Source of the DNA: an uncultured virus (IMG/VR IMGVR_UViG_3300042560_002875) | Taxonomy: Duplodnaviria > Heunggongvirae > Uroviricota > Caudoviricetes | Virus record (IMG/VR): IMGVR_UViG_3300042560_002875 | Reading direction: 5' to 3' (one strand) | Length of the DNA: 25,976 nucleotides | Shown here: piece after piece, positions 648 to 17,263 of the stretch | Layout of the letters: the number at the start of each line of letters is the position of its first letter | Position numbering within the stretch: the stretch's first letter is position 1 | The notes under the pieces: generated by a model | Told to the model about the DNA's origin: nothing | Database searches by the model: none | What the model saw: only the letters and a program-made list of their open reading frames with translations | Made by a program: the position numbers and the translations under genes

Positions 648-679
648 TGTTAAATCGACCACCTTTTGCTGGGGGGCCG

Positions 680-1158: not shown

Positions 1159-1175
1159 GGAATGTTCCTTGCTTC

Positions 1176-1209
1176 TGTCAGGATATGCCATATCTGGCAC
1201 TATGCCATA
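1176..1209. promoter_or_regulatory. Operator-like TGCCA/TGGCA repeat cluster between divergent genes
   Basis: TATGCCATA at 1184-1192 and 1201-1209 with inverted TGGCA at 1195-1199, in the short gap between divergent starts at 1158 and 1227. Confidence 0.35.
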
Positions 1210-1226
1210 CAAATCAATCACTGTTC

Positions 1227-1436
1227 ATGCGTTGCCCCCAGTGTCAGGTGATGGAACACACCTGTGTCCTCAACACGGTTCATAGGGAGGACGGAGTTGT
1301 CCGTCGTCGCAGGGGCTGCAGGGCATGCCAGATCCGCTGGACCACCTACGAGGATATCGAGGTGGGAAGCCTGATCAATGCTTTTGTGCCGCGACCCGTC
1401 GTCGGCGATGGCATCGAAGAAGGAAGGCGGCCTTGA
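1227..1436 (+). CDS. NrdR-like zinc-ribbon protein (69 aa, no ATP-cone)
   Basis: MRCPQC...VLNT...DGVVRRRRGCRACQIRWTTYE matches the NrdR N-terminal pattern MxCPxC...RRRRxCxxCxxRFTTxE. The likely start is ATG 1227 within track ORF 1095..1436. Confidence 0.8.
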   Translation: MRCPQCQVMEHTCVLNTVHREDGVVRRRRGCRACQIRWTTYEDIEVGSLINAFVPRPVVGDGIEEGRRP

Positions 1437-2867
1437 TCAGGGCTCCCGCGGGATCAATCCTTTGGCAGGAATCTCTTCGAGGAACGGCTTCCTAGAGGAG
1501 CCGACCGTGACCAGTTCGACAAAGCGCTCGGTCGATGGATCGAAGACCTTCAAGGTATTGGTCCCTCTCGGGAGCCACCAATCGTCCTTCCGACATCTCA
1601 GTGCCGCTGGCTCCGTATCGGTTGACCAAAGGATTGGAGACCTGTCACCCGTCGGGACTTCTTCGTCGGCGGGGACTGTGTTGCGCGCATCGATCGAGAT
1701 GCGACTGGATTCAGCCAGGGCATTCCCCAGTCGGTCCAGGGTCTGCTCTCTCCGCCTGTGGTAGCGGAGGACCTCACTGCTCTCTAGTCCCTCCCCGCTA
1801 GAGATCCCCTGGAAACCACGGTCTTCATTGCCGCTGATCTGATAGTCGCTGGGCTCGTAGAACGGATAGCCAACAGACCAGCGCACAGCATGAATATGCT
1901 TGCACTCCCTTCGTTGGTCCGAGCGATCAGAGAGCGTCCGAAACCGGCTGCTGTAGCCAACAGCCTGCGACTCCCATCGGCCCTCGAGGGATCGGCCAGC
2001 GCTGGGCCTGGGGAACAATGCCTGGCTGGCGCTGCTGTCTCCACTGAAGTCAGCAATTCGACTTCCGCTGTAGTCAGGGCAGGAGCAGAAGAAACGATGA
2101 CTGCTGCAGAGATAGCGGGATCCGTTATTTCTCCAAGAGAGTGGCAGTCTACGGTCGTAGTTCACGCGCTGCCAAAATGCTCTGTCCTTCCTGGGGTTGG
2201 GCCGCCTGCGCATGAACGGGCGGGATAGATCAAAGAACAGTTGCCCCTGATCGGGATTGATATCTACCAGCGTGTAAGCAATGGTATCGATCGGCTCTGC
2301 AATCAATCCCTGGGGCGACTCTGTCCCAACAGCCGAATCCTCAAATTGATCTCCGATAAACGCAGACCATTCCATGATCTGCGTGCTGGTCAGGGTCGAG
2401 CTGACATCAAGAATCAGCCGGTGGCGATCAGCTTCCGGGCGGGACGTGTCGAGAACCATGTTCTCCGCCCTGAGCAACTGCGGGAGGATGAGGGCTCCTC
2501 GGTTTCGATTGACGACCGTCCAGGATGCATCCGGGGAAGATCCGCTGGGGAAGTAGGTGACAGTCGTCAGCTGCGGACCCGGGAGCGCTCCATAATCCCT
2601 GAGGCTCCTGACCAGGAAGTATCTCTCAAGGTCGGCCCAGCTTTTGCCAGAGCCCTGCCAGTAATCCCAGCCAGCGCGCCACCTCTTGTAATCGCTATCC
2701 CGGTTGTACGCCTCAAGGATGGTCGGATAGACCGTTCCCCCTGTTTGCCCTTGCCCCCCTCCACGGGCGCTGCTGCGGTAACTTCCGGCTTTTGTTGCCC
2801 GAGCCGGCCTGGTCACGCTGTCCATTCGGGCGAAGTTATCGACCCGAGGGGATCGATCCACCCGCAT
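1437..2867 (-). CDS. SWIM-type zinc-finger-containing protein, function unknown (476 aa)
   Basis: FFCSCPDY ... RECKHIHAV forms a CxC...CxH SWIM-like motif with a long spacer. Its start overlaps the upstream stop at 2867. Confidence 0.65.
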   Translation of the reverse strand: MRVDRSPRVDNFARMDSVTRPARATKAGSYRSSARGGGQGQTGGTVYPTILEAYNRDSDYKRWRAGWDYWQGSGKSWADLERYFLVRSLRDYGALPGPQLTTVTYFPSGSSPDASWTVVNRNRGALILPQLLRAENMVLDTSRPEADRHRLILDVSSTLTSTQIMEWSAFIGDQFEDSAVGTESPQGLIAEPIDTIAYTLVDINPDQGQLFFDLSRPFMRRRPNPRKDRAFWQRVNYDRRLPLSWRNNGSRYLCSSHRFFCSCPDYSGSRIADFSGDSSASQALFPRPSAGRSLEGRWESQAVGYSSRFRTLSDRSDQRRECKHIHAVRWSVGYPFYEPSDYQISGNEDRGFQGISSGEGLESSEVLRYHRRREQTLDRLGNALAESSRISIDARNTVPADEEVPTGDRSPILWSTDTEPAALRCRKDDWWLPRGTNTLKVFDPSTERFVELVTVGSSRKPFLEEIPAKGLIPREP

Positions 2868-3388
2868 TAGTAGTAGCCGCCCTGGGCAAAAATGTTAACT
2901 TTTGTCAGGGGATTGGGGGCAGTGATGGCCCGATCCAGTCCCACATACAGCAGTTGATTGGCTTTGATCAAGAGCCCAGTGTTTTTCTTGGCCGTTTCTG
3001 ATGTGGACGTGTCAGCCCCAAGATTCGGAACCGGCACAGACAAGGGAGGCAGGGAGACGTTCGTTCTTTGTCCCGCAGCGCCTGAGACAATCGCAGCAGA
3101 GGCCACAACAGCCGTGTTCTCTGTTGTGATCCCAAACGGTGTTGGCGAGGAGCTTAGGAAGAAAAGGACAACAGCAGCCGTGGTATTGGCCTCTGTGGCA
3201 ACAAGGGAGAGACTGTCAATGACAGCACCATCGTTACCAAGGCAGTCCACCAGCACGGTGCAGCCACCACCAAGGATGCTAGCTAGGTTGGCCTGCGACG
3301 ACAGGGCTGGCGTCGCCCCAAGAGTCGCGAACTCGTGAAGAGGTCGATCAACCAGCAGGGGCTGCTTGTTGGTGCTTGAACTGCTCAC
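2867..3388 (-). CDS. Hypothetical, probable virion structural protein (173 aa)
   Basis: Small-residue and beta-strand-like composition, GTG start, located in the operon downstream of the capsid gene. Confidence 0.6.
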   Translation of the reverse strand: MSSSSTNKQPLLVDRPLHEFATLGATPALSSQANLASILGGGCTVLVDCLGNDGAVIDSLSLVATEANTTAAVVLFFLSSSPTPFGITTENTAVVASAAIVSGAAGQRTNVSLPPLSVPVPNLGADTSTSETAKKNTGLLIKANQLLYVGLDRAITAPNPLTKVNIFAQGGYY

Positions 3389-3428
3389 TTTTTCTTACAA
3401 GTTGCTGACCTGGTCATGCTAAGCAAAG

Positions 3429-3845
3429 TCAGGCACGCAATTGCGGCCCGCGCCTCAAAGCAGTGTTCATTCCCCTCGGCCCACGGGTCGGCCCGGTAAA
3501 CATGTCCGGGTTGATGCCGTTGTCGGTACCAGCCCGCTGGTTCCCTGGCCCTCGGCGCTCTGTCTCCCCCATGGGGATTGTTGTGGTGGGGAAGCTAGCG
3601 AGGGCTTGCTCCTGTTGTGGAGTTAACGGAAACTGACTGCGGGGAGGGGTCGCCAGTGCATCGACAAGTTGCACCCCTGCAATGGGGTATCGAACGATGT
3701 TGTCGTTATATGGCGTTCTGTACTCGATCTCCATTGGCCGCAGTCCTGCGGTATTCATCGTGTTGTTGAGCTGATTCCTTGGATCACCCGGCGCTGTCGG
3801 ATGCCCGCTGAAAAGAGCTGCCAGTGATGGAGCGTTCTTCATCAT
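3429..3845 (-). CDS. Hypothetical Pro/Gly/Arg-rich protein
   Basis: ATG at 3845/3842 overlaps the upstream TGA and has GGAGG upstream. No recognisable domain. Confidence 0.55.
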   Translation of the reverse strand: MMKNAPSLAALFSGHPTAPGDPRNQLNNTMNTAGLRPMEIEYRTPYNDNIVRYPIAGVQLVDALATPPRSQFPLTPQQEQALASFPTTTIPMGETERRGPGNQRAGTDNGINPDMFTGPTRGPRGMNTALRRGPQLRA

Positions 3846-4822
3846 TTCCTCCAATTAAGGTTCCAAGGATTAACTCCCCTCAGTAGTTCCTCATCGGACT
3901 GGGGAGAGGGCGCGGCTGGCGCATCTCGCCGCCCCTTGCGAATTCTGTTGAGGTGCTCACCCAGGAGATCCCCTGCCTTGCCGTAAGGGGAGATGGCCTC
4001 TTCCTCCGGGGAAAACGCACGATTGGCCTGCACCGGGTCAGGCTCCCACGCCGGGATGTTGCTTACGGTGTCTTGAAATGCATCGGGACGGGGCTGGACT
4101 TCGGGGATGTTGAACTTGCTGCCAAGATTCACCTCTGGCAAGAACGGATTGCTTTCAGTTGATGCATAGGCCTGTTCTGCCGTGCCAGAGAAGTTGGGCA
4201 ATTGGCTGACGACCGGGCGAACGATGCCCTCAATTGAGGCAGGCTCCACGTAGCCATGCTTGGCCTTGAGCTTGTCCGCAAGTTTTTTGTTGGCGCCAGC
4301 CCAGGACTTGATATCCGCCTGATCCCAGTATTCCTGCTGGGAAGGATCCAGTCTTCCATCAAGGGCTCCTCCTTTCCGGTATTCCAGTGCGGCCTTTCCT
4401 CTTGCCTGTGCGGCATCAGCCTGCTCTGGCGTTAATCCCGCCTGTTGGACCATGGCGTTGTAGGCCCGTTCTCTTCCAGAGGGGCCGGTCACGGGCCTGG
4501 CCACATTGCTTATTCCAGGCGTCCGGGGTGGGGGAGCCTGAAAAGCGGGAATACGAGCAGAAGCCTGCCGGGTTGGAGGAGGAAGCGCTGAAGCCAGCCT
4601 CGAGCCCCCGGCGTTTCCGCCGCCGACGCTGCCGGTGGGAACGCCCTGGGGGTAATCTGCAATGACCTTGGCTGAAGGAGGCAGTCCTGACATCCGCCTA
4701 GGACCGAACCGGCCGCCTGGTTGCGTTGGATTTGGACTCCACCAGCGATTACCACCCTGGGCGGCAGTGGGACGGGGCTGCCTTGTGCTGCCACTGCCGT
4801 AAGCTCCGGGTTGGCCAGGCAT
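3842..4822 (-). CDS. Hypothetical low-complexity protein, possibly internal virion protein (326 aa)
   Basis: Tightly packed in the minus-strand operon, GGAGG before ATG, P/G/A/R-rich. Function is inference only. Confidence 0.6.
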   Translation of the reverse strand: MPGQPGAYGSGSTRQPRPTAAQGGNRWWSPNPTQPGGRFGPRRMSGLPPSAKVIADYPQGVPTGSVGGGNAGGSRLASALPPPTRQASARIPAFQAPPPRTPGISNVARPVTGPSGRERAYNAMVQQAGLTPEQADAAQARGKAALEYRKGGALDGRLDPSQQEYWDQADIKSWAGANKKLADKLKAKHGYVEPASIEGIVRPVVSQLPNFSGTAEQAYASTESNPFLPEVNLGSKFNIPEVQPRPDAFQDTVSNIPAWEPDPVQANRAFSPEEEAISPYGKAGDLLGEHLNRIRKGRRDAPAAPSPQSDEELLRGVNPWNLNWRK

Positions 4823-4825
4823 CTG

Positions 4826-5311
4826 TTACCTCCAGTTGATAGCGCCGGTCATGGTCGCCACGCGAGTCCCGACAGCCGTATCAGCTGGACCGGGAACCGC
4901 CATGATGAACTCAGCACCGCTGCGAATAAACGCAAAGCGATGTACGTCCTCCCGCCGGTAATTGGGGACGTAAAGGGTTTCAGCCAATCGGTCCACTTCC
5001 CGAAGGTAGATCTCCCTGTACATCTGGTCCGCTTTTAACGGATCCGATTGGAAGATGGCCCGATCCGTGTCGCCCGTGATGCGCTCAATCCGACTGGGCA
5101 TCGGCTGGGTTTCATCCCGCAGTACTTCCGAGAGCTGCCAGGCGTTGTCGCATCGTTTGAGATGCTCCAAGACCTTGTCATAGAAGAAGCTGTCGGGAAC
5201 CCGGGCCATTGCTTCCTCTAACCTGGCCGCATCGCCAGCCGGGATTTGCGCCCCTAGGTTGTAGCCCAGGTGAAACCGGCAGCGGGATTTGTCGTAAGGA
5301 TTGAGCTCCAC
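4826..5311 (-). CDS. Putative head-completion/adaptor-type protein (161 aa)
   Basis: Helical-looking sequence starting DKSRCRFHLGY; position three genes after the capsid gene. The product call is positional. Confidence 0.5.
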   Translation of the reverse strand: MELNPYDKSRCRFHLGYNLGAQIPAGDAARLEEAMARVPDSFFYDKVLEHLKRCDNAWQLSEVLRDETQPMPSRIERITGDTDRAIFQSDPLKADQMYREIYLREVDRLAETLYVPNYRREDVHRFAFIRSGAEFIMAVPGPADTAVGTRVATMTGAINWR

Positions 5312-5348
5312 GCCACCGCGGCTAATTGGCCTCGGTGAAGTCTAGCGA

Positions 5349-5780
5349 TCAGGCCACATAGATCAAATCGTCCAGGCGGACCTGCTCCCAATCCACTCGG
5401 GGTACGGACTTGAGTTGCTCCAGATTCTGGAACTTCTCCCCAGGAAGGCTCATCCTCAGCTCGACAATCTTCTTGGCTGTTGAGAAGCCAACACCATTGA
5501 CATGCTTGGCAATCTGCTCAGCTGTTGCCAGATTCAAATTCAATCGGGTATCGACAGGAATAGCCCGCTCAGGGATCTTGTCCTCGTCAGCGGAGTTGTC
5601 CGCCATGGGAGACTCTGGGCTGCCGCCAGTGCGGCCTTTGCCTGGGGTGTACTCCTCTAGGTCTTTCAGGAGCGGATAAACCACTGCTCCTGACTGGGTC
5701 CGGACTTGGGCACAGTCCTTGCCATGGAAACTGATCAATTCAACGATCTGCCCAGTTTTCCGCTCGAGGTAAAGAGACAT
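5349..5780 (-). CDS. Helix-hairpin-helix (ComEA-like) DNA-binding domain protein
   Basis: C-terminal RLNLNLATAEQIAKHVNGVGFSTAKKIVELR...KFQNLEQLKSVPRV fits the ComEA-type pattern (ININTA..EL...GIG...A..I...R...F....L..V). Confidence 0.8.
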   Translation of the reverse strand: MSLYLERKTGQIVELISFHGKDCAQVRTQSGAVVYPLLKDLEEYTPGKGRTGGSPESPMADNSADEDKIPERAIPVDTRLNLNLATAEQIAKHVNGVGFSTAKKIVELRMSLPGEKFQNLEQLKSVPRVDWEQVRLDDLIYVA

Positions 5781-5831
5781 GCTTGCGCTCTCTTGGTAGA
5801 GGCCATTGTTCTAAGTAATCCTAAAGGGAAG

Positions 5832-5859
5832 GAGCAGGGCGACCGAGATCACCCTGCTC
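5832..5859 (-). terminator. Probable terminator or stability hairpin after the capsid and next gene
   Basis: Minus-strand stem GAGCAGGGTGAT/GTCGCCCTGCTC (12 bp with two G-U pairs) followed by CTTCCCTTT, a weak U tract. Confidence 0.55.
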
Positions 5860-5877
5860 TGATTCCACGGGTTAGTC

Positions 5878-6525
5878 CTAGATGGTCTCGACGATGGCAG
5901 GCAGGCCACCAAACGCGCTTTCGTCGCTGGCCTCGTCATCCAGGTAGTAAGCCACCTCAGCAATGAGGAAGCTGCCACCAGGCTCGCTGGAGGTCAGCCC
6001 AGCAGCGTCGCCAGCTGCCGTGCTCCCGTTGTCATAGAACAGCTTCAGGGTCATCTGAGCTGTGGTCTTGACGGGGGTGATCACACCAAACACCGAGCTC
6101 TGGGGAGCGGCAGTGTTACTGGTGTCATCAATCGGCGTGGTGGAGAGTGTCGTGGCGGTAATTGCCGCCCCGTTCACGCTCACTGCGCTAGCGAGCTTGA
6201 TGCGGTCCGTGCCAGCACCCCAGACCAGTCCAGAACGGGCAGTGCCCTGGCCGGCGTCCTTGCGTGCATCCCGGATCCGTAGACCCAGGAAGTACACAAA
6301 TGCGCCGTTGGGAATCACCAGACCGGTGATGTCGGGACGGGGCTTGTCATCGGGCCGCTTGTCAGGCGATGGCACAATGACATTAAACTCGGTACGAGCG
6401 GTGGAATCGACCTTGATGTAGCCGACCCTGTGAATGTAGGTCCGACCGGGCATGGTCACGACGCCCTGGCTTTGGTAAGCACTTAGCGCAGAAACATAGT
6501 TGCCCGGATAAATCTTCTTGGTCAT
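5878..6525 (-). CDS. Probable structural protein (capsid decoration/cement-like), 215 aa
   Basis: Directly follows the capsid gene with AGAGG RBS, precedes the hairpin, T/S/A/G-rich. The specific role is inferred from position. Confidence 0.55.
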   Translation of the reverse strand: MTKKIYPGNYVSALSAYQSQGVVTMPGRTYIHRVGYIKVDSTARTEFNVIVPSPDKRPDDKPRPDITGLVIPNGAFVYFLGLRIRDARKDAGQGTARSGLVWGAGTDRIKLASAVSVNGAAITATTLSTTPIDDTSNTAAPQSSVFGVITPVKTTAQMTLKLFYDNGSTAAGDAAGLTSSEPGGSFLIAEVAYYLDDEASDESAFGGLPAIVETI

Positions 6526-6540
6526 GTCAGTAGCCTCTGA

Positions 6541-7415
6541 TCAGTAAACGAAGCTGTAGGCGACCGTGATGAAGTCCTTGTTCAGCACTTCAAAGCCGGC
6601 CATGAGGCTCCACACCATGATGATGAATCGACCAAAGTCATCATTGTTGTTGAGCAGGATTTGAGCATTGTCACCGCCAATACCCACGCCAACGGCCTGC
6701 ATCCCGAAGAACAGGATTGGAGCAGCTTCCGTGACAGCAGCTGAGATGCTGGCCACGGGGATGGTGGTGGTGTAGCTCTTGTCTGGCAGGTTGGTCGATT
6801 CAAACCATTGAATCCCCTCGAAAAGGAATCCAGTCGGCATGACCGGCTGACCGGCCACAAAGCCAGCCTGGCCGTAGCCAACGCCAGAACCCAGGTAGTT
6901 GATGGCATTGGGGGCCAGATGCGGTTGCATCGGATTGGCCATGCCATTGCCGGGGTAACGAGCGATCTCGCGGAAATCGCTGTCCTGGCGCAGGTGCTTC
7001 ATCGCAGTGGGACTGGCGATGCAGCGATAGTGCCCATTCGGGAAGGTTGGCACGTTGCGCCGACGCATGCCTTCAAGGACGTCCAGGAGGTCGTCCTTGA
7101 CCCCAAATTTGGCGGACTGGCCGGAGCCGTAGCTTGCGACCGTGGTGCCGGTTTTGGTCTTGTTCTTGGGGAAGAAATAGCCACCCTGGGTGGAATCAGC
7201 CCTTCCGTTGGCTTCTGCTTTGAAGAGCTCGTCAGCGAACACCCGATCACGCCAACGGCGGTAATCGTCAAGAAGTGTTAAGGAGCCGATCGACTGGTGG
7301 AACGCCGCGATATTGCGGGTATCCAGCAGCAGGCGCTGAGAAGTCATCAGCGTCTCCCGTGCCACCTTGAAGGTGCTGGGCTGGTCAGCCTGTGAAGGGT
7401 CGGCGGGGCCGGTAT
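6541..7415 (-). CDS. Major capsid protein, exon 2
   Basis: The track ORF frame extends upstream to 7413 (TGPADPSQADQPSTFKVARETL...). Capsid-like motifs: YRCIASPTAMKHLRQDSDF, GFLFEGIQWFESTNLP, FFGMQAVGVG, DDFGR..MVW. The spliced product is 379 aa. Confidence 0.85.
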
Positions 7416-8429
7416 CAGTGTTGTTACCCTAGAGGCTCTTTATCCCCTAGTTCTGCAGCTTTGCCATTGCTGCAGCTCAGACTATATCATCACCCTTCAG
7501 GTCCACCTGATTCGGGTGCGGAGCACTCGTGCCGCCTTATCGTCCACTTCCTGCAAGCAGGTGTTGGGACTCGCTCAGCCATTGGGCAACAGTGCCCGTT
7601 CGACTGAGGTCAACTTTGTAGGCAAGGCAGGGATGTATGTACTCAGTAATGGCTCCAACAAGTAGTCGAAACTGCTTGGCGAACCATCGGAGATACAGCA
7701 TTCCACCTTTGTGACGAACAACTGAGCCAGAGGCTCCGGTGACGTCGTGAATCCAAGAAGCGACAACATCAACCTCCTCTTCATCCTTGCTGACGGGCAG
7801 CCAGCCAGAGCGCTCGACCTTGATCGAGCGAGGCCTCTGACGGCGACGGACCTCCAGGGATCCATCGTCCATCCAGAGAAGTGCCAACGCCTCGGGGCCG
7901 AGGTCACTGAACGCCTGAGGGGTGAATCTTTTGACGCCATTTGGATATAAGACGTCATACACGGGGGCGAGGTGCCGCTTGCTGCTGACGCCGAAACGGA
8001 CGGCGGGGTATTTCCCTTTGTCCATAAACGAGCGCAGAGATGCAGCAGTCCCGAGCTCTTGATTCAGCCGAGCCAGCTGCCATTGCGCGTAAGGCGCCTG
8101 GCGCTGACAGCGGCTGATGTACAGCGTAACTGTTCCGAAACGCTTATCGCGTCTCAGACAGCCATCACCAAGAGCACATCCCATGAAAAACGCTTGTGTC
8201 ACAACTTGATTGCCTAGGGAGTCGACAACGGTAGTCGTTGAACCTTCCAGCCATTCCTGGCTGGCTTGGCTGCTGATTACCCGGCCCAGTGTCATCCGTA
8301 AGAGTCTACCGGTTGGAGGGCTTCCAGCAATTCACTCCGTGTTCGACGCGGATTACGCCGCGAAGGAGCTGATAGCCAGAGCTGGTACGTCCGCCTCAGG
8401 GGCGAACAGGCCAGTCAGGGCTTGAGCCA
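7416..8429 (-). mobile_element. Group I self-splicing intron (IA-like architecture), 1014 nt, in the major capsid gene
   Basis: 5' exon ends in U (GAG T at 8430) and the intron ends in G (7416); the join gives KE-Y-TGPADP in frame. Core elements on the minus strand: P AAUUGCUGGAA 8322-8332; Q AAUCAGCAG 8270-8278; R GUUCAACGACUA 8232-8243; S GAUAUAGUC 7480-7488; P3 CGGAGUG 8333-8339 pairs UGCUCCG 7519-7525; P6 stem CCAGCCA-GGAA-UGGCUGG; P8 CACCC..UCAGGU/ACCUGA..GGGUG; P9 CUGCAGC/GCUGCAG. Confidence 0.93.
7537..8295 (-). CDS. Intron-encoded two-motif LAGLIDADG homing endonuclease
   Basis: Motifs AFFMGCALGDG and EALALLWMDDG, both retaining acidic residues. The bulk of the ORF lies between P7 and P3'. 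Start is ATG 8295 or GTG 8202. Confidence 0.85.
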   Translation of the reverse strand: MTLGRVISSQASQEWLEGSTTTVVDSLGNQVVTQAFFMGCALGDGCLRRDKRFGTVTLYISRCQRQAPYAQWQLARLNQELGTAASLRSFMDKGKYPAVRFGVSSKRHLAPVYDVLYPNGVKRFTPQAFSDLGPEALALLWMDDGSLEVRRRQRPRSIKVERSGWLPVSKDEEEVDVVASWIHDVTGASGSVVRHKGGMLYLRWFAKQFRLLVGAITEYIHPCLAYKVDLSRTGTVAQWLSESQHLLAGSGR

Positions 8430-8694
8430 ACTCTTTAAGGGTCACATTGACCTTGTCCTTCACGATGTTGCGAGACGACGCCGTGCCGAGCGTCTGATCA
8501 GCAGTGCGCTCTCGGGAGTCCTTGGTGCCAGGATTTCCCCAGTAGCGATAGCGGTCTAGGGCGACCGTTTGACCTGGTTGTGCCCCGAAATCGTGAACGA
8601 CAACAGGATCAACCGCCATCTCTACCACGTAGGCAGGATGGGGTCGATAAAGTTCGGCGCCCAGGATTTTCGGGAAATCATTGTCTATCCACAT
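8430..8694 (-). CDS. Major capsid protein, exon 1
   Basis: ATG 8694 (GGAG upstream): MWIDNDFPKILGAELYRPHP...PGQTVALDRY...KVNVTLKE. The G.TV...RY and VTLKEY pattern is typical of HK97-fold capsid N-terminal/E-loop regions. Confidence 0.85.
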
Positions 8695-8776
8695 TGGATG
8701 ACACGCTCCGAAAGATAAAGGATGTTGATAGCAAGCATTCCGCCCGCTGCTTCTTACACTAGAAAGGACGCGTGGG

Positions 8777-9388
8777 GTGAAATTGAACGCACCAGACATT
8801 CGCGGCCTGCTGGGAGTCTTCCTTGGTGACGGCTTCCTCTCTCAAAGCAGGTCAGCGGTCAAGGGCCATATCAAGGCCACCTTTCACGGTGGTGCCGACG
8901 AGCGTGAATTCCTCGAGGAGAAGGCAAGTGAAATCAAGCTCGTCATCCCAACCCAGGCCAAGATCTCGACCTATCAGATGCGCCCCAGCCAGACCGGCCA
9001 TCAGACCACGGTGCTGCGATTCCGGTTCTCGAGTCCACTGCTAGATCCGGTCTACAACTTGTTCTATCCCGATGGATTTCGGGAAATCACGCACCCCCTC
9101 TTGGACATTCTTGGACTCAGAGCAGCAGCCTGGCTTTGGGCTGAGGGGTATCGAAAGGGGGACAAGGACCATCGCCTGAGGAGAGTTGGGGCCCTGCGAG
9201 ACGAGGCTCGATTGGTCAGTGGCTGGCTCGAGTTTTTAACTGGCGCCAAGTCGTCCGTCACGGGCCAGTCCTCTCGAATACTGCCTCAACTGTCGTTCAG
9301 CTCTAAGGATGCGGAAATCGTCAAGGAGGCCCTCCTTCCCTATGCCCCGATCAGCCGGAAGCATTTGTTTCTCCCGGGGGAAAAATGA
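8777..9388 (+). CDS. Free-standing LAGLIDADG-like protein 1 (203 aa)
   Basis: RGLLGVFLGDG, LDPVYNLFYPDG and GLRAAAWLWAEG parallel the intron enzyme (LAPVYDVLYPNG; GPEALALLWMDDG). AAGGA RBS, GTG start. Confidence 0.75.
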   Translation: MKLNAPDIRGLLGVFLGDGFLSQSRSAVKGHIKATFHGGADEREFLEEKASEIKLVIPTQAKISTYQMRPSQTGHQTTVLRFRFSSPLLDPVYNLFYPDGFREITHPLLDILGLRAAAWLWAEGYRKGDKDHRLRRVGALRDEARLVSGWLEFLTGAKSSVTGQSSRILPQLSFSSKDAEIVKEALLPYAPISRKHLFLPGEK

Positions 9389-9993
9389 GCGCTCGTCTGG
9401 TTTCCATGGCCGTCGCCTATGCCATGGGCAGTGGCACTTTGAGGTGCAAGGGAGTCAAGCAGCGCCCCTGGCTGGAGCTAAAGCGGCTCGAAACAGAGCG
9501 AACCTACATGCTGCACCAGGTGCGATCCCTGCAGCGAGCGGGAGCGGGCCCCGTGCGCGCTGCTGTTGACATGCTTCCAGGCCGGCATTTTTACGATGTC
9601 TGCAGGGCCCGCCTGCAGCACGATGCATTCGAGAGGGCCATTGAACTGCTCGCTCCAGAAGGTGAAATCTCTCTCTCCAAAGAAGTCCTCGAGGTCGGAG
9701 GAGGCAGGGGCCTGGCCAGTATTTGGCTGGACCTGGGCCACTGGGATAGGGGAACCGCTGTGATCCCTCTCTCTAGTGAGCCCAATGCAGACGCCCTGCT
9801 GAGTCATTTGATCGGGCGTGGCGTTACTGGAATCGGCAAGGGGGGCAATCCAACAACCCTGCGCCTCTCAAAGCGGCAGTTCGCCCAATTCAGTGGGCTG
9901 ATTCGACACCATGTGCACCGCTCGATGGCCCATGCCCTCAGGGAGGGTTCAAAACATGGCACCTCAATCATGCGAGTTGCTACCCTTGTCTGA
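9385..9993 (+). CDS. Free-standing degenerate LAGLIDADG-like protein 2 (202 aa)
   Basis: SMAVAYAMGSG, AIELLAPEG and GGRGLASIWLDLG. The acidic residue before each motif Gly is replaced (S, L). ATGA overlap with the upstream gene. Confidence 0.65.
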   Translation: MSARLVSMAVAYAMGSGTLRCKGVKQRPWLELKRLETERTYMLHQVRSLQRAGAGPVRAAVDMLPGRHFYDVCRARLQHDAFERAIELLAPEGEISLSKEVLEVGGGRGLASIWLDLGHWDRGTAVIPLSSEPNADALLSHLIGRGVTGIGKGGNPTTLRLSKRQFAQFSGLIRHHVHRSMAHALREGSKHGTSIMRVATLV

Positions 9994-10131
9994 CCCCCGA
10001 AGCAGAACGGCGTCAGGGGGTCGCCCTTGTTGGTAGCGCAAGGGCAATTGCCAGGGCGGTGGATTTTTGTCGTTTCTCCACCGCGGTAACCGATCTCCGC
10101 TTGGGTCGCTCCCGGGCGGAGCGCCTGGTAA
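9992..10131 (+). ncRNA. Candidate structured RNA (two hairpins plus a three-way junction)
   Basis: Stems 9992-9998/10016-10022; 10023-10029/10039-10045; 10048-10055/10124-10131, which encloses 10056-10063/10077-10084 and 10095-10105/10111-10121. Non-Watson-Crick pairs in these stems are G-U on the plus strand. Confidence 0.5.
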
Positions 10132-10168
10132 AACTCTCTAGGATTGCTAGATAGGGCAATCAGTTGGC

Positions 10169-13100
10169 ATGCCGGATCAGCCGGGCATTACGACAAGATC
10201 GGAGAAGGGTGAGCCTCTTTCGTTTCAGGAAGTTGACGATAACTGGCGCCTGCTGACTTACCGCATTGACGAGGCGGAGGATGCACTTGATGACAAATAC
10301 TCGCCCGATGACAGGGCAACAGAAGAGGAGGCTGTAGCCGGGAGCCTGGAAACACCAGGCAGTATCAGCAACACGACGCTGATGACCCCTTACACCACCG
10401 CATTGGCTCTGGACCAGCGGGTGGGTCTTGGCGACCTCCTGGACAGGGTCGACACCCTGGAAGAAGAAGTCGTACAACTGGGGGAGGACACCGAGTTCCT
10501 GTTCAACACCAAATACGACGCTTCTGATCGGGCGACCAATCAGGAGGCCGTAGCAGGAGATCTCTCGACTCCAAACAGCATCAGCAATTCAGTGCTGATG
10601 ACTCCGTACACCACGGCACTGGCGATTGACGAACGGGTCAGCAGCAGTGATTTGTCCTACGACCCGGCAACCGGCGAGCTCGATATCTCCACGGGCGAAG
10701 GAGTCACACTGCCGCTGGCGGAACCGGAGGGTGATCCAGGTCTCCTCACTGGGGAGGACAAGGCCAAAATTGACGATCTCAAGCTTGTTGCGCTCACTGG
10801 CTCCTACAACGACCTGTCGGATCTGCCGGACCTTGGCTCTGCAGCCTTTACTGACTCGGAAGACTATGCCACCTGGGAGCAAGGGGAACTCGCTGATACG
10901 GCGGTTCAGCCAGAGGAGCTGACAAGCGCCCTGTCTTCCAAGGCTGACCTGGTCAACGGTCTGGTCCCAGCCTCACAGTTGCCGGGATTCGTGGATGACG
11001 TTCGGGAATATACCAATTTGGCAAGTTTCCCAGACCCGGGAACGACAGGAGTCATTTACGTCGCACTCGATGAAAACAAGCAGTACCGATGGAGCGGCTC
11101 GAGTTACATCCAGCTCACGGCCTCTCCAGGATCAACGGACGCTGTCCCTGAAGGCAGTGTCAACAAATACTTCACGGAGCAAAGGGCAGCAGCAGCAGCG
11201 CCTGTTCAGTCAGTAGCTGGGCGCACGGGAAGCGTTGTTCTCAGTGTCGGCGATGTTTCTAATGCTGTTGCAACGGGAGATTCCAGGCTGAGTGACTCCA
11301 GGGAGTGGAGCGCTCCAACAGCCACGGAAGCGGAGGCCACCCAGGGCACGTCTACGGAAAGGCGCGCCTGGACTCCAGTTCGAGTCTTCCAATCCATCGC
11401 AAGCTGGTGGAACGCCTCTAGCGATAAAACAAAACTCGACGGGATCACCCCGGGGGCCACTGCCAATTCCAGTGATGCCTTCTTGCTCAACAGGGCGAAC
11501 CACACGGGAAGCCAGGCCGCTTCCACGATTTCAGGCTTGGCAACGGTCGCCACAAGCGGCTCCTTCCTTGATCTAACCAATCGACCCACTCTCGGGACGG
11601 CCGCAGCCTTGGATGTTCCCGCGGCTGCTGGGGGGACCGCTCTCTCGGGCCAGGTCGTCAGGGGCGACGATCCACGTCTGGACAATAACCGCCCACCAGC
11701 TGCCCACAGCCACGGGAATATCACCAATGGCGGCGCTATTGGCAGCACTGCGAATCTCCCGATCATCACCACGACAGGGGGCGTCCTTACGACCGGCTCC
11801 TTTGGAGCAGCAGGGGGCACGTTTTGCGAGGGGAACGATTCAAGGCTGAGCGGCCCTCGAGAACCCACATCGCACAGCCACGGGAATATCACCAATGGTG
11901 GCGCTATCGGCAGCACCGCAAATCTCCCGATCATTACGACGGCTGGGGGAGTCCTTACTGCTGGTTCCTTTGGGACGGCAGGGGGCACGTTTTGCGAAGG
12001 GAACGATTCCAGGTTGGCGACCAATCTCGGCTATACGGCTGCCTCCAGGATCATCACTAGCTCGACTGGCCTGAGTGCGACGCTTCCGCTTGTAGAGGCA
12101 GCTGGTAACGCTGGGCTTCTGTCTGGTGCCGACAAGACCAAGCTCAATGGAATCAGCACGGGGGCCACTGCGAACTCCAGTGACGCGTTCCTGTTGAACA
12201 GGGCGAATCACACGGGAACGCAGCTCTTTTCGACGCTCACCTCAACGCCGACAACTCTGTCCGGGTATGGAATTACAAATGCCTACACCAAGGCGGAGAC
12301 GGATGCACTGGCTCAAGGCCTGAAGCCTAAAACCGCCGTCCGGGTTGCAACCACGGCAAACATCACGCTATCGGGGGCCCAGACTATTGATACTGTCACT
12401 ACTTTAGCTACGGGCGACCGTGTTCTTGTAAAAGACCAGACTGATAAATCTAAGAATGGCTTTTACAACTACAACGCAGCAGGAGCATGGACGCGCACGG
12501 CGGACTTTGATGAATGGTCGGAAGTCCCAAATGCTTATGTATTTGTTAGAGAAGGTCTGGTCAATGCGGGCGATAGTTTTGTCTGTATAAGTGGCAGCAA
12601 TCTGTTCGGTGCTAGTGAAATAGGCTCTTCAGATATTGAATTTATCCTGTTTAGCGCTGCCATTGAGATCGCCGCGGGGACAGGTCTCAACAAGGCGGGA
12701 AACACGATCTCCCTCGCAAATACCGCGGTCACGCCTGGCACTTACGGAAGCGCATCTCAGGTTGCCACACTCACGGTTGATCAACAGGGGAGGTTGACAG
12801 CAGCTGGCTCAACGCCACTTGGTGTTGGAACCACGCCCAATGTCCCGATCATCACCGGAGCAGGAGGGGTTCTCACTGCTGGCACTTTCGGAAACACCGC
12901 AAATTCTTTCTGTCAAGGCAACGACAGCAGGCTCAGTGATTCTCGTACACCATTAGCACACGCCCACGGCAATATCACCAACAGTGGAGCAATTGGTACA
13001 AATCCCAACTTGCCAGTCATTACGACAACCAGTGGTTTACTAACTACAGGCACATTTGGAAACACTGCGAATTCTTTCTGTCAAGGTAACGACAGCAGAC

Positions 13101-16100
13101 TGAGTGATGCTCGTACACCATCAGCACACACCCAGGCGTGGTCCACAATAACCGCCACTCCGACAAATCTGTCTGGATACGGTATTACAGATGCTGTTAG
13201 CAGTGCAGACAGCAGACTGAGTGATGCTCGCACACCATTAGCGCATACCCACGGCAATATCACCAACGGTGGAGCGATTGGTGCAAATCCCAACTTGCCA
13301 GTCATTACTACAACTGGTGGCTTGCTAACTACAGGTACATTTGGAAACACTGCGAATTCTTTCTGTCAAGGTAACGACAGCAGACTCAGTGATTCTCGCA
13401 CACCATTAGCACACACCCACGGCAATATCACCAACAGTGGAGCGATTGGTACAAATCCCAACTTGCCAGTCATTACGACAACCAGTGGTTTACTAACTAC
13501 AGGTACATTTGGAAACACTGCGAATTCTTTCTGTCAAGGTAACGACAGCAGACTGAGTGATGCTCGTACACCATTAGCACACACTCAGGCGTGGTCCACA
13601 ATAACCGGCACTCCGACGAATTTATCTGGATACGGTATTACAGACGCGGCTAGCAGTTCTCACGCCCACGGCAATATCACCAACGGTGGAGCGATTGGTA
13701 CAAATCCCAACTTACCAATCATTACGACAACTAGTGGCTTGCTAACTACAGGTACATTTGGAAACACTGCGAATTCTTTCTGTCAAGGTAACGACAGCAG
13801 ACTCAGTGATTCTCGTACACCCGTGGCACACACCCACGGCAATATCACCAACGGTGGAACGATTGGTACAAATCCCAACTTACCAATCATTACGACAACC
13901 AGTGGCTTGCTAACTACAGGTACATTTGGAAACACTGCGAATTCTTTCTGTCAAGGTAACGACAGCAGACTCAGTGATTCTCGCACACCATTAGCACACA
14001 CCCACGGCAATATCACCAACAGTGGAGCAATTGGTACAAATCCCAACTTACCAATCATTACGACAACCAGTGGCTTGCTAACTACAGGTACATTTGGAAA
14101 CACTGCGAATTCTTTCTGTCAAGGTAACGACAGCAGACTCAGTGATTCTCGTACACCCGTGGCACACACTCAGGCGTGGTCCACAATAACCGGCACTCCG
14201 ACGACTATATCCGGTTACGGGATTACAGATGCGCTGTCTACCGGTAATCAGAATCCCAATCTGGTGCTTGCCGGTCCATCGTCTGGCACTACTGCGGCCA
14301 CGCCCACTTTCAGGGCTTTGGCTGCTGGAGACCTGCCTAATGTCTCAGGCCTGACGGCAGCGGGCTATGGCAGCGCGTCAAGCGTGCCCACGCTGACTGT
14401 TGACGCAAAGGGTCGAATCACCGCAATAAGCAATACGGCTATCTCCATTGCCAATACCGCCGTCAGCGGCCTGGGGACTGCGTCAACCCGCAATGTCCCT
14501 TCAGGGGGAGGCGGTTCCAGCACTCCCAGTCTTCTTCCGGCCCCGGCCTCGGTTTCAGGAATCGACCTCGATGGGGATGGGGACGGAAACGTATTGTTTC
14601 AGGAAGCCGATAAAGCCTTTGATAACAATGTCACCACTAAGTATCGCAACACTGGAGGAGCCAACTCCGGCTTGGAGTTCTCATACGGGACGGCAACACA
14701 ACTTACATCATTTGTTATTACAACAGCAAATGATTCTACCGATCGAGACCCTGCCTCTTACCAGGTTTATGGATTCCAAAGCGGATCCTGGCAGCTGTTA
14801 ACTTCCGGTTCCCTTAGCCTGCCTACGGCAAGGCAGACCGACTCAGCGTCAATCACGCTCCCCGGCAATTTGCCTTCACTGACGCAGTACCGAGTGGTAT
14901 TCCCCACGCTTCGTGTCAGCGGCACAGCATCCATGCAGATTGCTGAGCTCAAGATGACCGGCATCCAGGGAACTGGGGGAGGCGGCGGGAGCACAAATGC
15001 CGCTGCTACCGAGGTCGTGCTCGGGAGCGATACCCGATTGACTGATGCCAGGACACCTACAACCCATTCCCATAGTGTTTTCAACAACACGACCTCCGGG
15101 TTTGCTCCTGCCTCAGGGGGTGGGACAACCAATTTTCTGCGCGCCGATGGAAGCTGGGCAGCACCTCCAGTCGGTGGGGGTGGGGGTGGAGGGACAGTAA
15201 CCAGTGTTGGACTGGCCCTGCCGAATATCTTTACGGTCTCGAATAGTCCCGTAACAGGTTCCAATACTCTGACCGGGACTCTAAATACTCAAAACGCCAA
15301 TCTCGTCTTTGCAGGGCCTGTTACAGGTGGTGCTGCAACGCCAGGTTTCAGGACACTTGTTGCAGCCGACATCCCGACCCATTCCCATAGTGTTTTTTCC
15401 ACTACTGCCGCTGGGTTTACTCCTATTTCACCAGGTGGGCAAACCAGGTACCTCCGCGCTGATGGGAACTGGGAGATACCTCCAGTTGGCGGAGGTGGAG
15501 GCGGCGGAACGGTCACGAGTGTTGGACTGTCCCTGCCGAATATCTTTACGGTCTCGAATAGCCCCGTAACAGGTTCTGGGACTCTGACCGGGGCTCTAAA
15601 TACTCAAAACGCCAATCTCGTCTTTGCAGGGCCCACTGCCGGTAATGCGGCAACGCCAGGTTTTAGGACACTTGTTGCAGCCGACATCCCAGCCCATTCC
15701 CATAGTCTTTTCACCAGTACTGCCTCCGGGTTTGCTCCTGCCTCAGGGGGTGGGACAACCAATTTCCTGCGCGCCGATGGAAGCTGGGCAGCACCTCCAG
15801 TCGGCGGAGGTGGAGGCGGCGGGACAGTAACCAGTGTTGGACTGTCCCTGCCGAATATCTTTACGGTCTCGAATAGCCCCGTAACAGGTTCTGGGACTCT
15901 GACCGGGGCTCTAAATACTCAAAACGCCAATCTCGTCTTTGCAGGGCCTGTTACAGGTGGTGCTGCAACGCCAGGTTTTAGAACCCTGGCTACAGAAGAT
16001 CTGCCCACCATCTCAGGTCTGGCGTCAGGAACCTATGGCAGCTCATCTCAGGTACCCACCTTCACTGTTGACGCGAAGGGGAGGCTGACAGCAGTACAGA

Positions 16101-17263
16101 ACGTAGGTGTGTCAGCTCCGGGTGTCGCGACTGCAAGCAACCTGATCACCAATGGAAACTTTGATATATGGCAGCGACGCACTTCGTCGGGGTCGCTCGC
16201 CGTGACAGCTAGTCCTCCCAGGGTCGCAGATAGGTGGGCTTCCGCTGTCCTGTTTGCAGCGTCTAATAACGCCTCGGGCACTTATACCGTTTCAAGACAA
16301 GCATGCACTTCAACCGAATTGGCAAGCTTTAGCGCTAGCTACTATCAAAGGATTGCAACAAGTAACGTATCCGCTGGGACAACAGGATTGAACAGCCTGA
16401 CTTCTGACAGCTTTGGGCTACTTGCACTCCAAAACGTTGAGGACGCGGCGTCTATCCTTGGTCAGACAGTGACCCTATCCTTCTGGGCCAGGGCTTCTGC
16501 TGCTACTCAGGTGGTTTCCGAATCTCAAATCTTTACCGTTGGTGCAGGGCGTTTTTGGACCCCCACGATATGCAAAACCTTCAATCTTACGACATCTTGG
16601 CAAAAGTTTACACATACATACACGATGCCAACCTATGCGCAGGTTGTGGCCTCTGCGTACAATCCAAATGCGGTCATTACAACGCAGACCAATCCAACCT
16701 ACACCCCTCTCGGTGAAGCCGCTTTACAGCCGCTGAGCAATTGGCTGTACCAGGTTGACATAAAATTTGCATGGTCCCTTGGTACGTGGAGGAGGTCTGG
16801 GAACGCTTATTCCACTCGCCCATCTGGCTTTGTGGGGACAGAACAAACCCAGGCGCAAATGAATAGCATGAACAACAGTTTGATCACAAACGGGTTCTAC
16901 GACATTGCACAAATACAAGTGGTGCCGGGATCTGGTGACCCCCAGTTCTGGCGTAGACCCGCCCAGCAGGAGCTCGCGCTTTGCCAAAGATACTATTGCG
17001 TTGCTCTTGCCAATACTCGTGGATACAATAGTGGGTCGAACTGGTTAGAGACACCCATCGTCTGGCCAGTAACCATGAGAGCAGCGCCCACTTGCAGCTT
17101 TGTTTCAGGTGTTGGTACTTCTGGCAATATCCAACAAAACCTAATTGAGTCCGTAAGTCCCATTGGAGCTAGGCATGCCATCCTGGGAATCAACAGCGTA
17201 AGCGACTCCTTTGCGCTCGCATTCCAGGTCGCTGCCGATGCTGAGAACAATTTAATTGACTAA
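10169..17263 (+). CDS. Giant tail fibre / receptor-binding protein (2364 aa)
   Basis: N-terminal ITTRSEKGEPLSFQEVDDNW anchor-like motif; VRVATTANITLSGAQTID...GDRVLVKDQT fibre domain; TPGTYGSA...VDQQGR and HxH repeats; PTTLSGYGITDA motifs; discoidin-like insert; C-terminal NLITNGNFDIWQR...TLSFWA...ELALCQRYY...PVTMRAAPT tip. Confidence 0.9.
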   Translation: MPDQPGITTRSEKGEPLSFQEVDDNWRLLTYRIDEAEDALDDKYSPDDRATEEEAVAGSLETPGSISNTTLMTPYTTALALDQRVGLGDLLDRVDTLEEEVVQLGEDTEFLFNTKYDASDRATNQEAVAGDLSTPNSISNSVLMTPYTTALAIDERVSSSDLSYDPATGELDISTGEGVTLPLAEPEGDPGLLTGEDKAKIDDLKLVALTGSYNDLSDLPDLGSAAFTDSEDYATWEQGELADTAVQPEELTSALSSKADLVNGLVPASQLPGFVDDVREYTNLASFPDPGTTGVIYVALDENKQYRWSGSSYIQLTASPGSTDAVPEGSVNKYFTEQRAAAAAPVQSVAGRTGSVVLSVGDVSNAVATGDSRLSDSREWSAPTATEAEATQGTSTERRAWTPVRVFQSIASWWNASSDKTKLDGITPGATANSSDAFLLNRANHTGSQAASTISGLATVATSGSFLDLTNRPTLGTAAALDVPAAAGGTALSGQVVRGDDPRLDNNRPPAAHSHGNITNGGAIGSTANLPIITTTGGVLTTGSFGAAGGTFCEGNDSRLSGPREPTSHSHGNITNGGAIGSTANLPIITTAGGVLTAGSFGTAGGTFCEGNDSRLATNLGYTAASRIITSSTGLSATLPLVEAAGNAGLLSGADKTKLNGISTGATANSSDAFLLNRANHTGTQLFSTLTSTPTTLSGYGITNAYTKAETDALAQGLKPKTAVRVATTANITLSGAQTIDTVTTLATGDRVLVKDQTDKSKNGFYNYNAAGAWTRTADFDEWSEVPNAYVFVREGLVNAGDSFVCISGSNLFGASEIGSSDIEFILFSAAIEIAAGTGLNKAGNTISLANTAVTPGTYGSASQVATLTVDQQGRLTAAGSTPLGVGTTPNVPIITGAGGVLTAGTFGNTANSFCQGNDSRLSDSRTPLAHAHGNITNSGAIGTNPNLPVITTTSGLLTTGTFGNTANSFCQGNDSRLSDARTPSAHTQAWSTITATPTNLSGYGITDAVSSADSRLSDARTPLAHTHGNITNGGAIGANPNLPVITTTGGLLTTGTFGNTANSFCQGNDSRLSDSRTPLAHTHGNITNSGAIGTNPNLPVITTTSGLLTTGTFGNTANSFCQGNDSRLSDARTPLAHTQAWSTITGTPTNLSGYGITDAASSSHAHGNITNGGAIGTNPNLPIITTTSGLLTTGTFGNTANSFCQGNDSRLSDSRTPVAHTHGNITNGGTIGTNPNLPIITTTSGLLTTGTFGNTANSFCQGNDSRLSDSRTPLAHTHGNITNSGAIGTNPNLPIITTTSGLLTTGTFGNTANSFCQGNDSRLSDSRTPVAHTQAWSTITGTPTTISGYGITDALSTGNQNPNLVLAGPSSGTTAATPTFRALAAGDLPNVSGLTAAGYGSASSVPTLTVDAKGRITAISNTAISIANTAVSGLGTASTRNVPSGGGGSSTPSLLPAPASVSGIDLDGDGDGNVLFQEADKAFDNNVTTKYRNTGGANSGLEFSYGTATQLTSFVITTANDSTDRDPASYQVYGFQSGSWQLLTSGSLSLPTARQTDSASITLPGNLPSLTQYRVVFPTLRVSGTASMQIAELKMTGIQGTGGGGGSTNAAATEVVLGSDTRLTDARTPTTHSHSVFNNTTSGFAPASGGGTTNFLRADGSWAAPPVGGGGGGGTVTSVGLALPNIFTVSNSPVTGSNTLTGTLNTQNANLVFAGPVTGGAATPGFRTLVAADIPTHSHSVFSTTAAGFTPISPGGQTRYLRADGNWEIPPVGGGGGGGTVTSVGLSLPNIFTVSNSPVTGSGTLTGALNTQNANLVFAGPTAGNAATPGFRTLVAADIPAHSHSLFTSTASGFAPASGGGTTNFLRADGSWAAPPVGGGGGGGTVTSVGLSLPNIFTVSNSPVTGSGTLTGALNTQNANLVFAGPVTGGAATPGFRTLATEDLPTISGLASGTYGSSSQVPTFTVDAKGRLTAVQNVGVSAPGVATASNLITNGNFDIWQRRTSSGSLAVTASPPRVADRWASAVLFAASNNASGTYTVSRQACTSTELASFSASYYQRIATSNVSAGTTGLNSLTSDSFGLLALQNVEDAASILGQTVTLSFWARASAATQVVSESQIFTVGAGRFWTPTICKTFNLTTSWQKFTHTYTMPTYAQVVASAYNPNAVITTQTNPTYTPLGEAALQPLSNWLYQVDIKFAWSLGTWRRSGNAYSTRPSGFVGTEQTQAQMNSMNNSLITNGFYDIAQIQVVPGSGDPQFWRRPAQQELALCQRYYCVALANTRGYNSGSNWLETPIVWPVTMRAAPTCSFVSGVGTSGNIQQNLIESVSPIGARHAILGINSVSDSFALAFQVAADAENNLID
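11700..14240 (+). repeat. 56-aa (168-nt) HxHGNITN repeats interspersed with AHTQAWSTIT..SGYGITDA units
   Basis: Two divergent copies at about 11700-12015, then one partial and six near-identical copies at about 12830-14160. Period 168 nt checked at 13251 vs 13419. Confidence 0.95.
15060..15990 (+). repeat. Three 105-aa (315-nt) repeats in the tail fibre
   Basis: CATAGT anchors at 15071, 15386 and 15701; unit HSHS.F...FLRADG.W..PPVGGGGGGGTVTSVGL.LPNIFTVSNSPVTGS..L...NANLVFAGP...TPGFRTL. Confidence 0.95.

Follow-up and report, generated by a model that had tools for sequence, protein, structure and literature searches.

A tandem pair of LAGLIDADG-type genes with a linked RNA hairpin beside the capsid gene in a clade of uncultured aquatic phages

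The window, that is, the whole stretch of DNA analysed here, comprises 25,976 nucleotides of an uncultured virus of the Caudoviricetes (IMG/VR record IMGVR_UViG_3300042560_002875); the subject is a cassette of two overlapping LAGLIDADG-type open reading frames, ORF1 and ORF2, and of a short hairpin that follows them, placed head-to-head with an intron-split capsid gene. The initial annotation had proposed at this locus two LAGLIDADG-like genes of about 200 amino acids (aa), sharing an ATGA overlap and beginning 82 bp from the capsid start, and the coordinates agree with it; the opposed boxes that it placed in the spacer (TACACT at 8755-8760 on the plus strand, TAGTGT at 8761-8756 on the minus strand) and the motifs that it cited were likewise all found, namely FLGDG and LWAEG in ORF1, AMGSG and IWLDLG in ORF2, and ALGDG and LWMDDG in the enzyme encoded by the capsid intron. 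The features of the locus are as follows:

8777..9388, plus strand: ORF1, GTG start, 203 aa; predicted single-chain I-SceI-like LAGLIDADG protein with D18 (LGDG) and E123 (WAEG) present
9385..9993, plus strand: ORF2, ATG start, 202 aa; tandem paralog of ORF1 with S16 and L117 at the catalytic-acid positions
8695..8776, no strand: 82-bp spacer between the divergent starts of the capsid gene and ORF1
9992..10022, plus strand: 31-nt CyVA-1-like hairpin beginning in the ORF2 stop codon
8430..8694, minus strand: capsid exon 1, head-to-head with ORF1; the capsid ATG is at 8694
7416..8429, minus strand: capsid group I intron with its own LAGLIDADG_2 enzyme, placed by alignment to the intron-less locus L008
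6541..7415, minus strand: capsid exon 2; phrog_1357 major head protein, E 3.2e-12

The ORF1 stop codon TGA (9386-9388) overlaps the ORF2 start codon ATG (9385-9387) in a 4-nt ATGA (junction letters GAAAAATGAGC). This overlap is typical of the subclade of the window; in most marine members (L019-L099), the ORF1 frame remains open for 47-161 nt into the conserved 5' part of ORF2, and the marine ORF1 proteins reach 230-256 aa, with predicted low-complexity C-terminal tails. The ORF1 start codon of most relatives is a TTG aligned with window position 8783, two codons inside the GTG frame; begun at this clade-conserved codon, the window protein measures 201 aa. A programmed frameshift between the two genes was considered and rejected, as no canonical slippery site was seen at the window junction and the junction letters vary between loci; fused ORF1-ORF2 proteins were not encountered among proteins of 413-2000 aa, which is weak evidence. 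The 1,014-nt insert in the capsid gene was delimited with L008, whose capsid protein is 100% identical and whose gene is insert-free; a T ends the 5' exon and a G ends the intron. The insert scores 29.2 bits (E 8e-5) against Rfam Intron_gpI, short of the cut-off of 50, and the enzyme encoded within it (8295..7537, minus strand) matches Pfam LAGLIDADG_2 with 46.6 bits. ORF1 and ORF2 are free-standing genes outside this intron (7416-8429), and not intron-encoded in the manner of maturases.

Models of both proteins were built with AlphaFold (AF2) from alignments of 46 rows for ORF1 (predicted local distance difference test, pLDDT, 93.9; predicted template-modelling score, pTM, 0.88) and 50 rows for ORF2 (pLDDT 93.3, pTM 0.89). 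In both, an alpha-beta-beta-alpha-beta-beta-alpha arrangement occurs twice, and the two domains pack via two LAGLIDADG helices, so that each protein, as predicted, is by itself a monomer of the single-chain LAGLIDADG type, complete with its two domains. The top Foldseek matches of ORF1 are I-WcaI and I-SceI (E 1e-11 to 5e-10; template-modelling score, TM, 0.75-0.77), and the same enzymes head the list for ORF2 (I-SceI TM 0.66-0.69), with WhiA at rank 7 (TM 0.59); the lower matches of the pair comprise bI3 maturase, I-DmoI and WhiA. Compared by sequence with solved structures, the two family profiles gave no meaningful match, the window ORF2 has no Pfam match, and neither protein has a PHROGs family; a precomputed match to LAGLIDADG_2 (PF03161) is carried by 11 of 40 ORF1 homologs, 23 of 50 members of the ORF2 family match the same domain at E ≤ 0.1 (best 1.3e-7), and the protein-atlas neighbours are LAGLIDADG_2 clusters. 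The ORF1 and ORF2 family profiles align with each other end to end in hhalign (98.8%, E 1.1e-16, 204 columns). In pairwise comparisons, ORF1 and the intron enzyme share 24% identity (E 8e-9), ORF2 and the intron enzyme match at E 6e-4, and ORF1 and ORF2 at E 0.002; the profile alignment and the pairwise values together indicate that all three are related, and ORF1 and ORF2 are ancient tandem paralogs.

The active sites were counted in 67 orthologs taken from the loci, window included. In ORF1, the catalytic acid at the end of helix 1 (D18) is present in 66 of 67 and that at the end of helix 2 (E or D123) in all 67, whereas an acid stands at the matching positions of ORF2 in only one case (residue 16) and in none (residue 117); position 16 of ORF2 is K or R in 43 of 67, and position 117 is variable. 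The eroded active sites that the initial annotation attributed to the pair are thus a property of ORF2, and the claim does not hold for ORF1; because ORF1 retains both canonical acids, ordinary cleavage by this protein stays possible. Both proteins are basic, with a median net charge of +5 for ORF1 and +11 for ORF2. Judged by these residues, ORF1 would still be a site-specific DNA endonuclease, and ORF2 a putative nuclease-dead, nucleic-acid-binding partner.

The distribution of the cassette was assessed in two samples. In the first, ascertained through ORF1 or ORF2 and comprising 96 viral loci with 70 distinct ORF1 variants (ORF1 relatives occur in at least 140 viral contigs), ORF2 lies directly 3' of ORF1 in 69 of the 70 variants, the sole miss having 53 nt of room, and a divergent capsid start lies 5' of ORF1 in 69 of 70, the sole miss again lacking the room; both frames are intact in all 66 unique loci. 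Because this sample was selected on the pair itself, a second was made from the capsid side, with the best 80 of at least 595 contigs encoding capsid relatives; among the 58 of these loci that extend at least 2 kb upstream, 24 carry both genes, 34 neither, and none only one. On a capsid tree of 65 rows (28 with the pair, 37 without; outgroup, the cultured phage S-EIVl), presence of the pair requires one change and the loci without it form a clade (Shimodaira-Hasegawa-like approximate likelihood-ratio test, SH-aLRT, 97), against a mean of 21 changes after label shuffling, with none of 500 shuffles as low as 1. The terminally repeated, complete 84-kb genome G003 has ORF1, and a complete genome of the sister clade contains no ORF1 relative anywhere.

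In that sister clade, the same slot is occupied by something else. In 36 loci without the pair (L118-L179), two genes form a cassette that diverges from the capsid gene, and the first of them encodes a NUMOD4/HNH_3 protein of 117-175 aa in all 30 loci scanned, five near-duplicates having been left out, and also in L179 (3195-3578, minus strand); within this HNH family, too, the sequences are conserved (43-82% identity). The second gene of this cassette is variable (132-362 aa), with weak PKD-like matches in some loci. About 1.7 kb 5' of the capsid gene, L179 also encodes a full sigma-70 family factor with regions 1.2, 2, 3 and 4 (1057-1998, plus strand).

Within the pair clade, the cassette has behaved as an ordinary vertically inherited part of the genome. 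The near-identical intron-less relatives (L008/L027 and L009) retain it, and synteny with the capsid gene in relatives without introns, which the initial annotation had put forward as a check, was found in these and throughout the 40 intron-free genes among 57 complete capsids. Between the window and L009, the nonsynonymous and synonymous rates (dN and dS) are 0.028 and 0.400 for ORF1 (omega 0.07), and 0.034 and 0.741 for ORF2 (omega 0.046). The median dN/dS, from the only 8 pairs unsaturated in all five genes, which are non-independent, is 0.070 for ORF1, 0.058 for ORF2, 0.017 for the capsid, and 0.052 and 0.047 for the two downstream genes. The dN/dS comparison, likewise proposed earlier, thus points to purifying selection on both genes, with an omega of about 0.06-0.07, similar to that of the adjacent structural genes. 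The distances between ORF1 copies follow those of the flanking genes (Spearman 0.76-0.84), comparably to flank against flank and with no discordant pair, and conserved blocks are still kept where ortholog identity falls to 43% (ORF1) and about 30% (ORF2). The patchy distribution with neutral decay that had been named as the outcome contrary to a retained role was not what emerged, since there is one change on the tree, the frames are intact and omega is low. Patchiness, discordance with the flanks and decayed copies, the signs of a mobile element, are all absent, and inheritance is vertical.

The third part of the cassette is the hairpin at 9992-10022, with a G+C stem of 5-7 bp and a conserved 17-nt loop, GAAG(A/C)AGAAC(G/T)(G/A)CGTCA. 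It scores 28.7 bits against the Rfam family CyVA-1 (RF02965; model positions 38-68 of 77), below the cut-off of 41.4, and no match reaching the cut-off was found in nine related loci. The hairpin is single-copy in the complete 87-kb record; in 54 of 65 unique loci, the loop motif falls within the interval from -10 to +70 nt relative to the ORF2 stop, and loose matches elsewhere number 38 in 1.45 Mb. When the stem is also demanded, the hairpin is present in 22 of 28 capsid-sampled loci with the pair versus 0 of 132 loci without it, a strict linkage that bears out the earlier proposal of a downstream RNA tied to the two genes. Five inner base pairs are kept in all 44 distinct sequences, with compensatory changes (e.g., C-G to U-A), and covariation reaches 0.319 versus 0.156 in shuffled alignments, with none of 500 shuffles as high and a fall when the partners are slid. 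The G-U pairs are compatible with the plus strand only; taken with the compensatory changes, this makes it most likely that the hairpin is an RNA element in the transcript of ORF1 and ORF2. For CyVA-1, no function is stated in the main text of PMC5737381.

The best reading of these data is a three-part cassette of homing-endonuclease origin, gained once and kept under purifying selection by a whole clade of phages of about 80-88 kb; that it works as a nuclease module under selection, with ORF1 modulated by ORF2 and the hairpin, is given about an even chance. In such a module, ORF1 would cut a specific DNA site, likeliest in the genomes of rival or related phages or in alleles near the capsid gene, and ORF2 and the hairpin would adjust its action or hold it in check, by way of expression, self-protection or targeting. 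What maintains the cassette would be selection on the nuclease activity itself, exerted by competition or homing during mixed infection or by a DNA step intrinsic to the phage; it would not persist as drifting selfish DNA. Fixed homing endonucleases are expected to decay or to gain another function (PMC3984707), and neither ORF1 nor ORF2 has decayed despite fixation.

Several observations weigh against this reading. In S-EIVl, the nearest isolate, both the pair and a divergent cassette are missing, which shows that the wider group does not depend on the function. The corresponding slot of the sister clade is filled by another nuclease family, exactly as would be seen if selfish endonuclease genes were using it as a passive landing pad. 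The window ORF1 scores 23.5 bits (E 5.9e-5) against LAGLIDADG_2, just below the cut-off of 25, and when the sample is widened to protein databases, D18 is replaced by S, G, C or N in a few ORF1 homologs. ORF2 has a conserved acid of its own, D116, present in 66 of 67 orthologs and aligned by hhalign with ORF1 A122 (always Ala in ORF1), which could support a non-canonical active site, the term dead being a deduction from residues. The capsid-side sample is limited to the best contigs, and the selection medians to the few pairs described above.

Other roles have to be set against this one. Introns were counted in the complete capsid genes of the ORF1-ascertained set (n = 57) and in the capsid genes of an HNH-ascertained set (n = 64). 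At least one insert longer than 100 nt was present in 17 of the 57 pair-clade genes versus none of the 64 HNH-clade genes, two of which have abutting alignment pieces resembling frameshifts; this contrast is one clade versus another, a single evolutionary comparison. The capsid gene of the pair clade is thus a hot spot for group I introns: the inserts occupy about 8-9 sites, with up to four in a gene (L048, L069), and 12 of them, in seven of nine loci scanned, reach the Intron_gpI cut-off, with none in L095 and L099. The split genes include those of L048, L069, L087, L092, L022, L057 and L060, and many capsid introns are ORF-less and 230-400 nt long. In G003, no Intron_gpI match was obtained at E ≤ 0.01, a search of limited sensitivity.

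It is conceivable, but unlikely, that ORF2, by itself or together with ORF1, serves as a free-standing factor of the maturase type that helps the capsid group I introns to fold and renders the clade intron-permissive. Bacterial intron-encoded LAGLIDADG maturases are known (PMC3984707), and the intron contrast between the clades, the very basic ORF2 without catalytic acids, the bI3 maturase among the structural matches and the conserved RNA hairpin 3' of it are all consistent with such a role. Nevertheless, 40 of the 57 pair-bearing capsid genes are free of introns, ORF1 keeps its nuclease residues, and a dedicated maturase is weakened because G003 retains the pair without a detectable group I intron. 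To our knowledge, moreover, the known maturases are all encoded within the intron that they serve, which is not the position of this pair. A related proposal, also thought improbable, is a domesticated ribonucleoprotein (RNP) module, in which ORF2 would bind the hairpin loop of the mRNA that encodes it, and perhaps the RNAs of group I introns, as a trans-acting splicing or RNA-control factor, and ORF1 would supply a selected DNA-cutting activity. If correct, it would explain why only the pair clade tolerates up to four capsid introns, and this would be the first case in which one active and one dead LAGLIDADG protein, both free-standing, form a pair that has an RNA partner.

The spacer at 8695-8776 directs attention to transcription. 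In 57 of 69 loci it measures 78-96 bp, and it contains a TAC.ATA box that is conserved across 50 aligned spacers and represented in the window by TACACT at 8755-8760, the capsid Shine-Dalgarno sequence GGAG (minus strand) and, at its centre, an inverted repeat or hairpin; a sigma-70 consensus scan of 8500-10300 called no promoter, and RNAalifold on the MAFFT spacer alignment gave no consensus structure, although single-sequence folds give the hairpin. About 35-60 nt 5' of the capsid start (about 8725-8752 in the window), both clades have a short inverted repeat or hairpin whose stem sequence varies, and in the HNH clade (e.g., L179) it has the loop TTCGACTT and covarying stems of the GTGAC/GTCAC type. 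This element may be a 5' untranslated or promoter-proximal element of the capsid gene; its presence in the pair-less HNH clade as well assigns it to the region upstream of the capsid gene rather than to the pair. That the pair, or ORF2, is a domesticated WhiA-like or CapR-like regulator of the back-to-back capsid and rightward promoters is very unlikely. The idea draws on the divergent promoter region with its kept spacing and box, on a basic ORF2 that appears nuclease-dead by its residues, on WhiA among the ORF2 matches, and on the precedent of CapR, a capsid-operon repressor derived from the DNA-binding domain of a homing endonuclease (PMC10448857). Against it, the LAGLIDADG core fills the approximately 200 aa of each protein and no additional helix-turn-helix domain was detected (strongest signal HTH_Crp_2, 14 bits versus a cut-off of 27), I-SceI is a better match than WhiA for both proteins, the conserved catalytic acids of ORF1 would be needless in a pure regulator, and the sharing of the spacer hairpin with the pair-less sister clade weakens the case for a pair-specific operator in 8695-8776.

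The occupation of one head-module slot by two unrelated nuclease families, each fixed in its clade and the HNH family itself well conserved, may also suggest a nuclease that processes the genome for head filling or at the genome ends, the LAGLIDADG pair and the HNH protein being a case of non-orthologous displacement; HNH proteins that act with terminases are known in other phages. The probability of this is low, since the terminase gene lies 11-14 kb from the slot in the window, the capsid gene of S-EIVl has neither cassette beside it, and nothing connects either protein with the genome ends. Equally doubtful is the view that ordinary selfish, free-standing homing endonucleases swept the clade without benefit to the phage, with ORF2 as a decaying duplicate: an intact ORF1 active site, a highly conserved essential gene next door, which is the usual place for such elements (PMC10448857), another endonuclease family in the sister-clade slot and a capsid gene full of mobile introns would all suit it, but not one copy is broken or missing in 66 unique loci or in 24 capsid-sampled pair loci, omega is equally low for the supposedly dead gene, a single change suffices on the capsid tree, and the conserved blocks and linked RNA element have outlasted divergence to 43% and about 30% identity.

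The proposed nuclease module, with ORF1 as a probable endonuclease and ORF2 and the hairpin as its putative modulators, can be compared with several known systems. I-SceI and I-WcaI, the best structural matches, resemble both proteins in fold and size, and share with ORF1, although not with ORF2, the single acidic residue that ends each LAGLIDADG helix; they are, however, intron-encoded, whereas the pair is free-standing, tandem, fixed and vertically inherited, and not patchy. Among degenerate members of the fold, the bI3 maturase and WhiA resemble ORF2 in lacking the canonical acids; ORF2 differs from the former in not being intron-encoded and in having an apparently active paralog alongside, and WhiA combines its degenerate LAGLIDADG core with a C-terminal helix-turn-helix that ORF1 and ORF2 lack. 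F-CphI of cyanophage S-PM2 (PMC6083498) is likewise a free-standing endonuclease adjoining a conserved, intron-prone gene, psbA, but it is Endo VII-like, in contrast to the LAGLIDADG pair with its dead paralog and RNA hairpin. Collaborative or trans homing, by free-standing endonucleases beside ORF-less group I introns, has been described (PMC3984707); here, the capsid introns occupy 8-9 sites and one enzyme cannot serve them all. Regarding the RNA, the 31-nt hairpin has a loop nearly identical to that of CyVA-1, and only one element of that motif is present.

With respect to position, homing-endonuclease genes cluster beside essential phage genes, the capsid gene included, and ICP1-like phages carry nuclease genes beside the capsid and at gene-exchange boundaries, with different classes sharing favoured loci (PMC10448857). 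Those nucleases are T5orf172/GIY-YIG and HNH enzymes with zinc fingers and vary between isolates, in contrast to the clade-fixed LAGLIDADG genes described here. Endonuclease genes beside capsids and loci shared by nuclease classes being common, the kind of arrangement is already known; what appears new, on the evidence of sequence comparison, is a fixed pair of paralogs, one looking like an active enzyme and the other dead, to which an RNA hairpin is linked.

The relatives and the occurrence of the phage provide the context of the cassette. In 50,697 phage records, the only cultured relative of the capsid protein is that of S-EIVl (59% identity), and tblastn searches of the same records, from which some close to the genome of the window may be missing, gave no match at E ≤ 0.01 with ORF1 or ORF2. 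The S-EIVl homolog (L001, KJ410740.1) was located by tblastn on the minus strand of the locus at 7982-9112; the record annotates 7961-9187 as two opposite-strand coding sequences for a 'hypothetical protein', and the deposited capsid annotation looks wrong. The stretch is present in 20 lake or freshwater DNA runs, and no RNA run is among the public runs listed as containing it. Positions 1-16141 of the window correspond to C71, a contig in an assembly (G000) of 3.1 Mb and 96.8% completeness, in which no photosystem II (PSII) gene was found. The only prokaryote-genome matches are four (L260-L263), in bins labelled Methanobacteriota and Phycisphaerae, and these phage contigs, like C71, are probably mis-binned; given the archaeal and planctomycete bins and the lack of PSII genes, the label 'cyanophage' is not established. 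Directly 3' of the cassette, the window carries a repeat-rich, fibre-like or virion gene of 2,364 aa (10169-17263, plus strand), whose product matches tail, minor-tail and head-decoration families of PHROG; in relatives, this gene is variable or missing at that place, and homologs of g17711 come after ORF2 instead.

Homing-endonuclease genes are textbook selfish DNA, which invade, become fixed and decay. Contrary to that course, the pair and its hairpin are intact throughout a clade of uncultured phages from aquatic habitats that is both deep and abundant. The cassette would offer a natural setting in which to ask why a fixed endonuclease stays alive, be it through competition between phages, self-control by way of a dead paralog, or a new RNA-linked role, and the intron contrast between the two clades makes a link between the endonuclease and intron tolerance directly testable.

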